This document shows positions 149 through 50,971 of a stretch of DNA of 64,000 nucleotides, piece after piece; the first letter of the stretch is position 1; every line of letters begins with the position of its first letter. Below the pieces are notes generated by a model that was not told the origin of the DNA, made no database searches, and saw only the letters and a list, made by a program, of their open reading frames with translations. The stretch comes from Octopus vulgaris. Its lineage: Eukaryota. The translations under genes were made by a program, and so were the position numbers. Location: contig OX597828.1 in assembly GCA_951406725.2 (NCBI GenBank), forward strand, positions 74,896,001-74,960,000. Reading direction: 5' to 3'.

Positions 149-155
149 TTTGGAA

Positions 156-548
156 CAGTTCTACATTTGAGAGATGAGGAATTATGCACATTATTTACAT
201 TATTTACATTTGATGGATATTTGTCCTCATCTTGTTTGTTAAGGAAGGATAGGAAAAAACAAAAAATTAGATTTATAAGCCCTAAAATTCACTCCATAAT
301 TGCCCACAGGAATATGACGTAGTGTTTAAGAGTGCGGACTACTAATCCCAAGACTCCGAGTTCGATTCCAGGCAGTGGTCTAATAATAATAATAATAACA
401 GAAAAATACCTTAGGAATGAGAACTCAGGTTCGAAATTTCCCCAAGACACCTGAAGAAGGCTGGAGGGTATATCAGCCGAAACGTTGTGTTAACAACAAA
501 TAAGATGAGGACAAATATCCATCAAATGTAAATAATGTAAATAATATA
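156..548 (+). mobile_element. tRNA-promoter/hammerhead retroelement (Penelope-like non-autonomous), copy 1
   Basis: Inverted tail copy 156-242, A/B-box-like tRNA segment ~313-380 (GTTCGATTCC), (AAT)n, hammerhead 447-490, then tail to ~548. Confidence 0.7.
447..490 (+). ncRNA. Minimal type I hammerhead ribozyme
   Basis: ACAC-CTGAAGA-A-GGCTG(gagggtatat)CAGCC-GAAA-CG-TT-GTGT: stem I ACAC/GTGT, CUGANGA core, 5-bp stem II, GAAA, palindromic minimal stem III and a GUU cleavage triplet. Confidence 0.7.
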
Positions 549-5892: not shown

Positions 5893-6226
5893 TAAAGACT
5901 CCCTTCGGTCATGAATGACCATGAGATTGCGCCTAGAATGTTCCTTTCTGAGGCGCAAGTCCGGGCAAGGTTGTTTATGGAAGACCAACAGTCGCCCATG
6001 CATGCCAGCCTCCCCTCTTCACTCCACCAATGTCATCCAAGGCAAAGGGGCCGATACAGTATGGCACCAGTGACATTGTAACTCATTTCTACGGCTGAGT
6101 GAACAGGAGCAATGTGGAATAAAGTGTCTTATTCAAGAACACAATACACAGCCTGGTCCGGGAATCGAACTCACTACCTCATGATTGTGAGCCTGATGCT
6201 CTAACCACTGAGCCATGCACCTTCAC
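5893..6226 (-). mobile_element. tRNA-derived SINE family A
   Basis: Reverse complement of the 21010-21350 copy. Confidence 0.85.
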
Positions 6227-16833: not shown

Positions 16834-17250
16834 ATGTATAGATATATACGACAGGCTTCTTTCAGTTTCCGTCTACCAAATCCACTCACAAGGCTTTGGT
16901 CGGCCCGAGGCTATAGTAGAAGACACTTGCCCAAGGCGCCATGCAGTGGGACTGAACCCAGAACCATGTGGTTAGTAAGCAAGCTACTTACCACAAAGCC
17001 ACTCCTGTGCTTATGTTAAAGGGATGTAAACATACCAACACCAGTTATCAGGCAGTAGTGGTGGTGATGAGGGGGGGGGGACAAACAGACACACACACAC
17101 AATAATACCATCTACCAAATCCACTCATAGTGCTTCAGTTGGCTCAAGGCCACAGTAGAAGACACTTGCCCAAGGTGCCACATGACGAGATTGAACACAG
17201 AACTATGTGGTTGGGAAGCAAGCTTCTAACCACACAAGCCATGCCGGCAC
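16440..17250 (-). mobile_element. Nested/tandem SINE family B cluster
   Basis: Full copy at ~16601-17010 plus flanking partial copies. Confidence 0.8.
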
Positions 17251-19561: not shown

Positions 19562-19626
19562 TTCAAATTTTGGCACAAGGCCAGTAAGTTCTGGGGAGGC
19601 AGTAAGTTGATTACATTAACCGCAGT

Positions 19627-19773
19627 ACATTATTTACATTATTTAAATTTGACGTATATTTGTCCTCATCTTGTTTGTTGTTAACACAACGTTTCAGCTG
19701 ATATACCCTCCAGCCTTCATCAGGTGTCTTGGGGAAATTTCGAACCTGGGTTCTCATTCCTAAGGAATTTTTC

Positions 19774-19807
<34 letters not shown>

Positions 19808-20002
19808 ATCGCTGCCTGGAACTGAACTCGGAATCTTGGGGTTAGTATCCTGCACTCTTGATCACTATGCCATATGCCCAAGGGCAATTATGGAGTGAAT
19901 TTTAGGGCCTCTCATTCCTAAGGTATGTGTTAACAACAAACAAGTTGAGGACAAATATCCGTCAAATGTAAATAAATCCTCATCTCTTAAATATAGAACT
20001 GT
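19627..20002 (-). mobile_element. tRNA-promoter/hammerhead retroelement, copy 2
   Basis: Same architecture in reverse. It is inserted in a family C SINE with a ~12-bp TSD, attaaccgcagt (19615-19626) / attaatcccagt (20003-20014). Confidence 0.7.
19684..19727 (-). ncRNA. Minimal type I hammerhead ribozyme
   Basis: Minus strand reads ACAC-CTGATGA-A-GGCTG(gagggtatat)CAGCT-GAAA-CG-TT-GTGT. Confidence 0.7.
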
Positions 20003-21009: not shown

Positions 21010-21350
21010 GAAGGCGCATGGCTCAGTGGTTAGAGCGTCGAGCTTACGATCGTGAGGTTGTGAGCTCGAATCCCGGACCGGGCTGCGTGTTGTGTTCTTG
21101 AGCAAGGCACTTTATTTCATGTTGCTCCAGTTCACTCAGCTGTAGAAATGAGTTGCGACGTCACTGGTGCCAAGCTGTATCGGGCCCTTTGCCTTTCCCT
21201 TGGATAACACTGGTGGCGTGGAGAGGGGAGGCTGGTATGCATGGGCGACTGCTGGTCTTCCATAAACAACCTTGCCCGGACTTGTGTCTAGGAGGGTAAC
21301 TTTCTAGGTGCAATCCCGTGGTCATTCATGACCGAAGGGGGTCTTTACCC
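21010..21350 (+). mobile_element. tRNA-derived SINE family A, full length
   Basis: A box tggctcagtggttaga, B-box-like gagctcgaatccc, core cttgagcaaggcactt...cagctgtagaaatg and tail gaccgaagggggtctttaccc. Confidence 0.9.
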
Positions 21351-24457: not shown

Positions 24458-24603
24458 GGGTGTGGGTAAGAACCTTGCTTCCCAACCACATGGTTCCGGG
24501 TTCAGCTCCACTGCGTGACACCTTGGACAAGTGTCTTCTACAGCCTCAGGCTGAGCAAAGCCGGGTGAGTTGATTGGTGGACGGAAACTGAAAGAAGCCC
24601 GAC

Positions 24604-28430: not shown

Positions 28431-30589
28431 AAAACGATGTAAAGATGTTAGAGAGAAAGAAAGAGAGAGAGTGAGAGGAAATAGACGGAAAGTTTTGTGA
28501 AAAGAGAAGGAGAGAGAGAGTGTGTAAGTAACGTCGAGATTGAGACAAAGAGAGACAGAAAGATGGACGATATGAAAGTGTTAAGAAGAGAAGACAGACT
28601 GAAAGATATAACGATGTTTATATATGAAGAGAGAGAGACAGACAGAGACAGAGAGAACAGTGGATATCTGTTGTTTAGTGTTATTTAGCTTCAGTTCATT
28701 TCTGATCGGGCAGGTTTACAATCAAAGACATTCTAACCGTGACTGTAATATCTTTTTATAAAATATCAAGGATGACCATCACCTAATGTCTTTTCCTAAT
28801 GTCTTTTCCTAACGTATGATTTGAGAGAGTGAACATGTTTGTACTTCAGGCAGATCGAGACCGACGACCACCCATTAGGTAAATGTTGATGTCCCGAAAT
28901 GGGGTTCCCCCGAAGGATTTCTGGAGTCTCTCCATGTTGAGTTGTTGCTTCTCCGCACTGAGACATCACGACCCCAGTACTACAGACATAGGAATAGAAA
29001 TGTTAGAGGAAAGAATCGTGAGACGGATTCTTTAAGACGAAGAAGCAACCGCCAGAACACGTTGGAGTAGAGCCAAAACGAGATGGTCGAATAATATCCA
29101 TGGTCTCCGTTGGTCGCGCTTAGGGATCCAACCGGAAAGTGTAATGAAGTGTAACGACGGTTGTTTCTGAAAGGGGGTGGAGGCACGTAACACGTAACTT
29201 AGTGGTTAGTATGATTGGACCCATGACTGTAAGATTCCGATTTCGATTCCTGGACCGGGCGATGTGTTGTGGGTGCTACTTTGGCGTGGGATCTACAGCT
29301 TCAAGGGCGATTACTTTAGTTTCCTTCCGTGACAAACCAAGCGACTGTCAAACTTGTATGATCTACGTGCTTATTAAATTGTTTATTCGTGGTTATTATT
29401 ATTTTCTAAGACATAAATGGAACATGGTTTTATTATTATTAAAATAGTAAGAATTCTGGGAAAATACACTTACAATACTAAGTGTGTACAAAAGAATTTA
29501 TTGTAAAAAATGTTCAGCCAACATCTTAAGAGTTTTTAGAAATTGGAAAGCAAACAAAAAAGTAACCTTAAGTAATCGCCCTTTTGATTGTAGATCCCAC
29601 GCCAAAGTAGAACCGCGTTGTGTTCAATTCACGTTGCTTCGGTCCATTCAACAGGCTAAAATGAACAATCCTGTAGAGGACCGATGTCCCGTCCAGGTGG
29701 GGAGTATATATTCTCCACAGAAACCGGCCATATGAGTAGGGAAGGATCTTTATCCCATTTCATCTCTCTGATAGAACCATATGGAGGAGATACCAGAGGA
29801 TTTTACCCCACGACCCTCCCAGGAATAATGGACAGAGAAAATGGATGTATGATCCGACGCCATATATGGGACTGGTCCTCTGGACTTAGACTGTTGTCAA
29901 ATATCTTATAAGGGATGGGAGAATTTGAAGGGCATTAAGGGAGATGTCTCCAATAGTCAGCGTGTGTTTAGCCCTAACTCAGCTCACATTGAGCAGAGGT
30001 CTACGACGAGTGACATTCCAGCTAGGACATCCATGTCTTTTCAGAAATATGTAGGACTATATTATCTGAGTTTTTCCCTTGGTTAAGACAGTGGTAGAAC
30101 GTGATTTGAGGGGGATTTCGCTGTTATTTCTAGCAAGTAGGATAACCACATAAAAGCGCCTTAGTTTAAGTTTCATTAACTAATTAGCCTTGACCGAGTA
30201 GGCTTACAACCAAGGACATTCCAGCTGTGACTATCTCGTCTTTTTTCTATGCTCATAAAAGCATCGCCCATAGCAGACTTTCCTCATTGCCTATGCTACT
30301 CAGGGGATGTACTCGACAGAAAATCTGAGTACACACACAGCTTACACAGTTTGGTAATCTATTCTGTAATGAAGTCTGTTTTTCTTTTATTTTTAATTAA
30401 AAGAAAAACTTGGTAACCAGAACTAAACAGCCACAACTTTGAGAAGTGACCAAAAAAGACTAGTTTTTCTACAAAATTCGAGGGTTATAGCCGAAAGTAA
30501 TGCAGAAGCGGGCATAACATTTTCTTTTTATTCGGTGACAAAAGTTGTTCACATTGCACATGTTAGTAGAGTTATCTTTCCTTTTTTAC

Positions 30590-39035: not shown

Positions 39036-39195
39036 TACGACAGGCTTCTTTCAGTTTCCGTCAACCAAATTCACTCACAAGGCATTGGTCGGCCCGGGGC
39101 TATAGCAGAAGATACTTGCCCAAGATGCCACGCAGTGGGACTGAACCCGGAACCATGTGGTTGGTAAGCAAGCTACTTACCACACAGCTACTCCT
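38768..39195 (-). mobile_element. SINE family B
   Basis: Full-length, CpG-rich copy. Confidence 0.9.
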
Positions 39196-50639: not shown

Positions 50640-50971
50640 AGACCCACCCCCACTTTGGTCGGGAATGACTTTGGGATTGCAGCTGGAAAGTTACCCTTCT
50701 GGGGCACAAGTCTAGGCAATGTTGTGTATGGTCACCCAGGCATACCAGTTTCCCCTCTCCATGCCACCAATGTTATCCAAGGGAACGGCAAAGGGGCCGA
50801 TACAGCTTGGCACCAGTGACATCACAATTCATTTCTACAGCTGAGTGAACTGGAGCAACGTGAAATGAAGTGTCTTGCTCAAGAACACAACACACAGCCC
50901 AGTCAGGGAATTGAACTCACTGTGTTGTGATTGTGAGCCCAACGCTCTAACTACTGAGCCGTGTGCCTTCA
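50640..50971 (-). mobile_element. SINE family A
   Basis: Reverse copy of 21010-21350. Confidence 0.85.

Follow-up and report, generated by a model that had tools for sequence, protein, structure and literature searches.

What kind of element carries a tRNA-like A/B-box segment and a hammerhead ribozyme within a single unit of about 390 bp? The unit in question occupies positions 156-548 of the window, by which we mean the whole stretch of 64,000 nucleotides of Octopus vulgaris contig OX597828.1 analysed here. An earlier note, made from the letters alone, described it as a SINE-like family of its own, of the retrozyme or Sm-alpha kind, transcribed by Pol III, self-cleaving, mobilised by a Penelope-like element (PLE) and possibly producing circular RNAs. 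We read the unit instead as the pseudo-LTR of a decayed Penelope/Poseidon-type element; at odds that we put slightly above even (roughly 55%), its tRNA-derived head is an internal Pol III promoter from which Pol III would start the element's RNA and read through the element.

The unit in the window

All features named at the outset are found in the window: the A/B-box segment, the (AAT)n tract, the full minimal hammerhead at 447-490 and the inverted tail. The following features were assigned, the two boxes from the A/B box consensus.

155-240, minus strand: inverted partner copy, 5'-truncated, with the post-ribozyme tail and a Penelope extension of ~30 nt
155-189: the Penelope extension (~30 nt), within the inverted partner; the forward window copy is without it
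237-240: TTAA overlap, the joint of inverted partner and forward copy
238-322, plus strand: final codons of the ORF for reverse transcriptase (RT) and a putative GIY-YIG endonuclease, with the stop codon at 320-322, inside the A box
301-312, plus strand: short palindrome bordering the head on its 5' side, with two changes in the window copy
308-380, plus strand: tRNA-derived head, closest to tRNA-Arg among the 7 amino-acid types sampled; without a tRNA call
315-325, plus strand: A box, with two substitutions relative to the family majority
358-369, plus strand: B box, intact, and present in sister family B too
381-399, plus strand: (AAT)n tract of varying length, a second hot spot of 5' junctions
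417-545, plus strand: start of the element's ORF (ATG at 417), in frame across hammerhead and tail
447-490, plus strand: minimal type I hammerhead with palindromic ACGU stem III and GUU triplet; predicted cut after 486
447-450 and 487-490: hammerhead stem I (ACAC/GTGT)
451-457: hammerhead core CTGAAGA, with an extra A at 458
459-463 and 474-478: hammerhead stem II (GGCTG/CAGCC)
479-482: hammerhead 3' core GAAA, followed by CG and then TT
491-545, plus strand: tail; the window copy ends close to the first of two preferred 3' ends
19626-20002, minus strand: another copy of the family, likewise with an inverted tail and extension

The tRNA-like segment is where the earlier note saw it, except that it starts at 308 (the first G) and not at 313. 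The forward copy is truncated 70 nt ahead of the head, and the palindrome at the head's 5' edge is the site where most copies of the family begin or fold back. Stems I and II both form in the minimum-energy fold of the hammerhead (-10.7 kcal/mol), and 17 of 79 related PLE loci carry the same core. The ribozyme is, as the earlier note held, a minimal one of Penelope type. While the ribozyme of the window copy is intact, its A box is damaged and the ORF begun at ATG 417 meets a premature stop at 501-503. Rfam (with E-value thresholds) and ARAGORN, run on the unit, called neither a tRNA nor a hammerhead and returned chance matches only. Elsewhere in the window, other tRNA-derived SINE heads, weakly similar to this one, lie at 6158-6218, 16947-17001, 21013-21074, 24458-24510, 29197-29253, 39136-39183 and 50907-50968.

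Element identity and copy forms

What had been overlooked is that 238-322 holds the end of an endonuclease ORF and 417-545 its beginning. Among the best matches to the unit, some extend upstream into endonuclease-like coding sequence and, conversely, 27 of 30 loci picked by the coding part alone (four near-identical duplicates among them) continue into the tRNA head. The single ORF contains an RT domain (Pfam RVT_1, E 5e-12) and is still open over 569 aa at one locus (L251). Its homologues are PLE-like and share a C-terminal endonuclease motif, recognised by eye, which we take to be of GIY-YIG type; Pfam yielded no GIY-YIG match. The endonuclease is thus assigned from motif and homology, and the Penelope/Poseidon placement was made without an RT tree. 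Compared by eye, the linker between RT and endonuclease (EN) is short in L055 and Cys-rich in L361, and the element appears to have no zinc-finger linker of the Neptune/Nematis type.

Near-full-length copies (L181-L183) show a repeat-ORF-repeat layout; the autonomous, RT-bearing PLE that the earlier note proposed to look for was found in them. The ORF ends inside the A box, then restarts at ATG 417 and runs through hammerhead and tail into a conserved N-terminus, which matches that of homologue P0005 (11/20 identical, E 1e-5). The order along the element is an ORF stop in the A box, a spacer of ~95 nt made of head and AAT tract, the ATG, the hammerhead within the first codons, the tail, the RT and the endonuclease.

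We also sampled 90 ribozyme-anchored copies, taken from the ribozyme matches listed for contig C1 (all but one of the first 91). In 59 of them an inverted partner lies upstream, and the 3' ends of 80 fall into two clusters ~25-30 nt apart, near +241 and +265 as counted from the head. Pseudo-LTRs in partial tandem, inverted 5' copies and an optional tail of 30-40 nt are all present. Inverted 5' copies and paired 3' ends are described as Penelope signatures (PMC8557442, PMC11167929). Taken together, the inverted partners, the two 3' ends, the RT ORF and the repeat-ORF-repeat layout identify the unit, with near certainty as regards its PLE identity, as the pseudo-LTR of a decayed autonomous element of Poseidon type. 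Mobilisation by a PLE, as first suggested, is thereby upheld; a separate SINE or retrozyme family is not, because the whole unit, head included, sits in the autonomous element.

Two other families were seen alongside this one. The first is a young PLE family (L356-L369) with a Neptune-type Cys-rich linker, many open frames of 700-1,200 aa and a minimal hammerhead-like motif of its own ~500 nt past the stop; a related motif occurs at L081:340-390. The second is a young LINE family (L317, L325, L336 and many more) in which numerous open frames of about 950 aa are nearly identical.

A 34-nt hammerhead sequence has 2,232 exact matches across the genome (227 contigs, 2.8 Gb) and a 34-nt head sequence 1,081, against 0 for either reversed control. 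Exact agreement with the core pattern is seen in only 4 of 57 ORF-selected copies, so the hammerhead count corresponds to roughly 30,000 decayed copies, with a wide error. The family is old and decaying: long copies are ~8% off the majority sequence, and core and stem II are intact in only 6 of the 57 ORF-selected copies, so that present copies show no selection on the ribozyme. We propose that the family now decays neutrally.

A distinct short subfamily was considered and rejected, there being no alternative fixed alleles between short and long copies at 224 positions. In 81 long and 95 short alignments every difference has the short copies closer to the majority base, and the short copies in this comparison were partly chosen for likeness to the majority. 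Copies were counted as independent throughout; 4 of the 10 long copies form one local cluster (L107-L110, G000:C1:7.9-9.05 Mb) of head-to-head copies with a common junction, probably duplicated after insertion. Five chimeras (L451, L455, L469, L475 and L476) join ~270-330 nt of tail and ORF start to a second, 5'-truncated end repeat, and look like RT template jumps from the RNA 5' end. At nine further loci (L106, L112, L117, L131, L135, L136, L139, L152 and L162) the 5' end runs into AAT-type tails of other repeats, which suggests microsatellite microhomology at the 5' junction.

Head, hammerhead and the start of the RNA

The head is tRNA-derived, as the earlier note held. Compared with 30 tRNA loci of 7 amino-acid types, it aligns best to host tRNA-Arg genes, with scores of 62 and 60 against 46 for the best shuffled sequence. 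On the head profile, no other SINE head within 670 kb of fetched sequence scores above 18.5 bits, and in 79 related PLE loci from a metagenome the profile finds no match (best E 3.7); a search for tRNA heads in these relatives by relaxed ARAGORN was discarded as noise. The tRNA-Arg-like head is the unusual part of the element, the hammerhead and the Penelope anatomy being already known. It is also stably linked to the body. An independent SINE with the same head, only occasionally adjacent, was rejected because 25 of 30 head-anchored matches continue straight into the body, three have an inverted partner with body or tail, and two end after the AAT tract.

Copies of the family frequently end at the head. 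Among the 90 ribozyme-anchored matches, 11 have their 5' end at +96 to +150, 26 in the AAT tract (+65 to +95), 7 at +21 to +64, 36 at -20 to +20 and 10 farther upstream; 36 of the 46 copies that reach +20 therefore stop within -20 to +20. The per-base 5'-end rate at the head edge is 0.032 versus 0.002-0.003 elsewhere (ratio 12, Fisher p 3e-19). The same picture emerges from an independent sample anchored on the head, in which 28 of 30 matches end at the head edge. Six of 30 repeat-ORF junction copies reach the head, of which three begin at -7 to +3, two inside it (+28 and +31) and one continues into the upstream ORF; the 5' end of L183 is at -2. RNA reads of a related organism depart from the reference at -7 (318, 261 and 264 reads). 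These reads are unstranded, show no start or end peak at the head or the cut site, and have a depth that tracks genomic copy number. Type 2 Pol III promoters start 10-20 nt ahead of the A box, and with internal priming, 5' ends at the head would mark the 5' end of the RNA itself.

T4 terminates Pol III transcription, and the majority coding strand contains none (0 T4 runs in 2,653 nt vs 5.0 expected). Clusters of four T in five positions are likewise scarce (4 vs 14.9 expected, a ratio of 0.27). In 77 related PLE ORFs (the 79 loci minus two duplicates) the ratio has a minimum of 0.56 and a median of 1.24, all above that of the element, these controls being single copies and the majority strand a composite. 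Thirty decayed copies of the family have 21 T4 runs vs 94 expected, and five other retroelement families of the genome (four LINE-type and the Neptune-type PLE) have T ratios of 0.75-1.7. Synonymous-codon resampling gives p 0.045 and 0.013 for the depletion; under Markov nulls fitted to the element itself the absence of T runs is not significant (p 0.07 and 0.18). G4 runs are similarly scarce (0 vs 3.3 expected in the majority strand, 9 vs 45 in decayed copies), though G 4-in-5 clusters are ordinary. Zero T4 runs are found in 3 of the 77 control ORFs as well. One related locus, L390, has an ORF without T4, but a T-rich spacer and no head.

Sister family B (at least 1,021 candidates, e.g. L176:25-345 on the minus strand and L220-L249) is older and more diverged, and keeps a homologous tRNA-like head with B box, a palindrome at the head start and the same ATG context, with an open N-terminal frame through a GUA hammerhead; it is without the AAT tract and has no T3 within 330 nt. 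No autonomous partner of family B was found: 30 loci have no upstream ORF, and there is none among the matches to homologue P0001. Because of the missing upstream ORF, family B may truly be a SINE-like offshoot.

The pile-up of 5' ends at the head, the T-run depletion and the head kept in family B together argue for a Pol III start with read-through. On the Pol III promoter role of the head, the earlier note was probably right. We hold more tentatively, at rather less than even odds, a fuller version: an autonomous coding retrotransposon whose 2.7-kb messenger and template RNA would be made by Pol III from a captured tRNA promoter, with its whole ORF purged of T-run terminators, internal priming dispensing with a defined 3' end, and its own 5' end shed as SINE-sized copies. 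On the main reading, Pol III would start a few bases ahead of the head in an upstream pseudo-LTR and meet no T4 terminator across the element. The RT/EN protein would bind the 5' part of the ORF and prime internally at two tail sites, as in the Poseidon element of Anolis carolinensis (PAc), for which two internal priming sites of the RT, and mainly uncut RNA as its substrate, are reported (Frangieh et al., 2024; PMC11167929). Primed in the upstream repeat, the RT would copy ~250-270 nt back to the RNA 5' end and yield the abundant SINE-sized head-to-tail copies; priming in the downstream repeat, or template jumps, would yield the ORF-bearing ones. The palindrome at the RNA 5' end could let the cDNA fold back, creating inverted partners. 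The hammerhead would be mostly uncut in the copied RNA; if it did cut, as a dimer or helped by protein, the ORF would be parted from its start codon. Both Pol III use and self-cleavage are what we infer from the sequence. Kojima (2024; PMC10886601) regards Pol III as too weakly processive for long autonomous elements.

Perhaps the element has two promoters instead, with the head-driven Pol III making only short non-coding RNAs, copied in trans in the manner of SINEs, and the protein translated from RNAs that Pol II or read-through would supply. The usual Pol III product is a short RNA without a cap (PMC10886601), short copies starting at the head outnumber long ones (28 vs 2 of 30), many repeat-ORF junction copies stop a few hundred bases into the ORF, and family B has no upstream ORF in 30 loci. 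A division of labour of this kind nevertheless seems improbable to us, as it leaves the T-run depletion across the entire 2.3-kb ORF unaccounted for; moreover, the short copies have no subfamily alleles of their own and the short unit has no terminator after it.

We give no higher odds to a passive head, a piece of a tRNA or SINE that once landed at the end of the ORF; the pile-up would then reflect an RT stop at the hairpin or simply Pol II transcription starting there. Stalling or folding back of RT at the palindrome could by itself produce this pile-up, and many 5' junctions do read as palindrome fold-backs. The (AAT)n tract also resembles a SINE tail, and transcription of D. virilis Penelope and Chlamys-3 is reported to start inside the pLTR (PMC8557442). 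Against passivity, however, the head and its B box are retained in two diverged families, and no T depletion like that of this family is seen in the 77 relatives, all of them without a head-profile match. The ends also cluster at the start expected of a type 2 promoter, going by the general box spacing.

On a deeper time scale the ribozyme motif is conserved. Its core recurs in 17 of the 79 related PLE loci, with 8 different paired stem II sequences, a combination of conserved core and variable stem II that fits the minimal hammerhead described in PMC4209133. The stem covariation that the earlier note had looked to as a check was neither expected nor found within the family and is present, as paired stem II variants, among distant relatives. 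Covariation comes from these relatives only, because the main family (A) and family B share stem II.

As to tandem and circular forms, the 90 ribozyme-anchored matches contain no full head-to-tail multimer and two partial tandems; in the copies, sequence is present both before and after the cut site, and joints in the unstranded RNA reads of the related organism mirror genomic inverted and repeated forms. The retrozyme and circular-RNA part of the earlier description is not supported by these counts. The only array found (L189:2835-3882, on G000:C22 near 14,416,000) has ~4.4 head-to-tail units of 240 bp, each running from -7 to +235 with the hammerhead and with private changes in common; it is a candidate nascent retrozyme. 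An independent, non-autonomous retrozyme or Sm-alpha-like family, spread by tandem transcripts, self-cleavage and circular RNA, is very improbable: that array could give cleaved monomers and animal retrozymes are reported to derive from PLE pseudo-LTRs (bioRxiv 10.64898/2026.07.22.740005), but the unit is part of an autonomous element, its copies are nearly all solitary or inverted pairs that start at the head instead of the cut site, and uncut RNA is the main substrate in Anolis Poseidon (PMC11167929).

Relation to known systems

The putative captured tRNA promoter within an autonomous element is the part for which we found no description in the literature. Our literature search brought up no PLE whose promoter is of tRNA or Pol III type; Repbase, Dfam and the supplement of PMC13282606 lay outside it and may have a consensus under another label. 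Nor, in line with the earlier note, did we find an octopus hammerhead element described. A 2026 repeat annotation of Octopus vulgaris lists Penelope families, with neither ribozyme nor hammerhead in its main text (PMC13282606). In the text of bioRxiv 10.64898/2026.07.22.740005 there is no mention of tRNA, Pol III or promoter, and in that of PMC7229834 there is none of Pol III, its tRNA passages being about ligases and background.

If Pol III does make the full RNA, this would run counter to the usual working premise that coding retroelements depend on Pol II, and would provide a natural example of a long, translated Pol III transcript and a Pol III counterpart to R2's use of Pol I. It would also show how offspring of the Sm-alpha or retrozyme kind could arise directly from an autonomous PLE, with no SINE having to be born separately. 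The start site of a PLE would become readable from genomic 5' ends and, for annotation, tens of thousands of such copies would be misfiled as SINEs.

The closest likeness is to PAc and other EN+ Penelope/Poseidon PLEs, as described in PMC11167929: one ORF with RT and, in our element by motif, a C-terminal domain of GIY-YIG type, pseudo-LTRs, and an ORF start lying over a minimal hammerhead. As in PAc, two internal RT start sites would account for the optional tail of 30-40 nt, and there are inverted 5' copies. Unlike in PAc, the gap from ORF stop to ORF start is taken up by an A/B-box head of tRNA origin, T4 is absent from the coding strand and the head is where most copies begin; the ATG lies upstream of the ribozyme core, whereas it is at the start of stem II in PAc (PMC11167929).

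In layout the element agrees with Sm-alpha and Sj-alpha of Schistosoma, in which a type I hammerhead comes after a promoter of Pol III type (PMC6765202, PMC8490949). Sm-alpha, however, is a SINE-like repeat needing tandem copies (PMC6765202), whereas this is an autonomous coding element with a minimal hammerhead and solitary or inverted copies. Metazoan non-LTR retrozymes are likewise PLE-derived repeats of ~250 bp with a type I hammerhead (PMC7229834; bioRxiv 10.64898/2026.07.22.740005), but are defined by tandem units and circular RNAs (PMC7229834), and we found one array. A small-RNA-derived Pol III promoter in the terminal repeat of a retroelement is also known from the TRIMp3 elements Cassandra, Helenus and Ajax; these are non-autonomous LTR elements below 1.3 kb, whereas here the carrier is an autonomous PLE, and Kojima expects the autonomous partners of TRIMp3 elements to use Pol II (PMC10886601).

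Finally, the head resembles those of the octopus tRNA-derived SINEs, having a tRNA-Arg-like sequence with A and B boxes, the comparison with OR1 and OR2 being by description only. Octopus SINEs derived from tRNA were reportedly presented by Ohshima and Okada in 1994, and OR1 and OR2 are said to derive from tRNA-Arg. Membership among such SINEs was rejected: the A/B-box head is there, but the element is not a non-autonomous one sharing only its 3' end. In part it would seem to work like a SINE, and it resembles Sm-alpha, but its place is in the EN+ Penelope/Poseidon kind.
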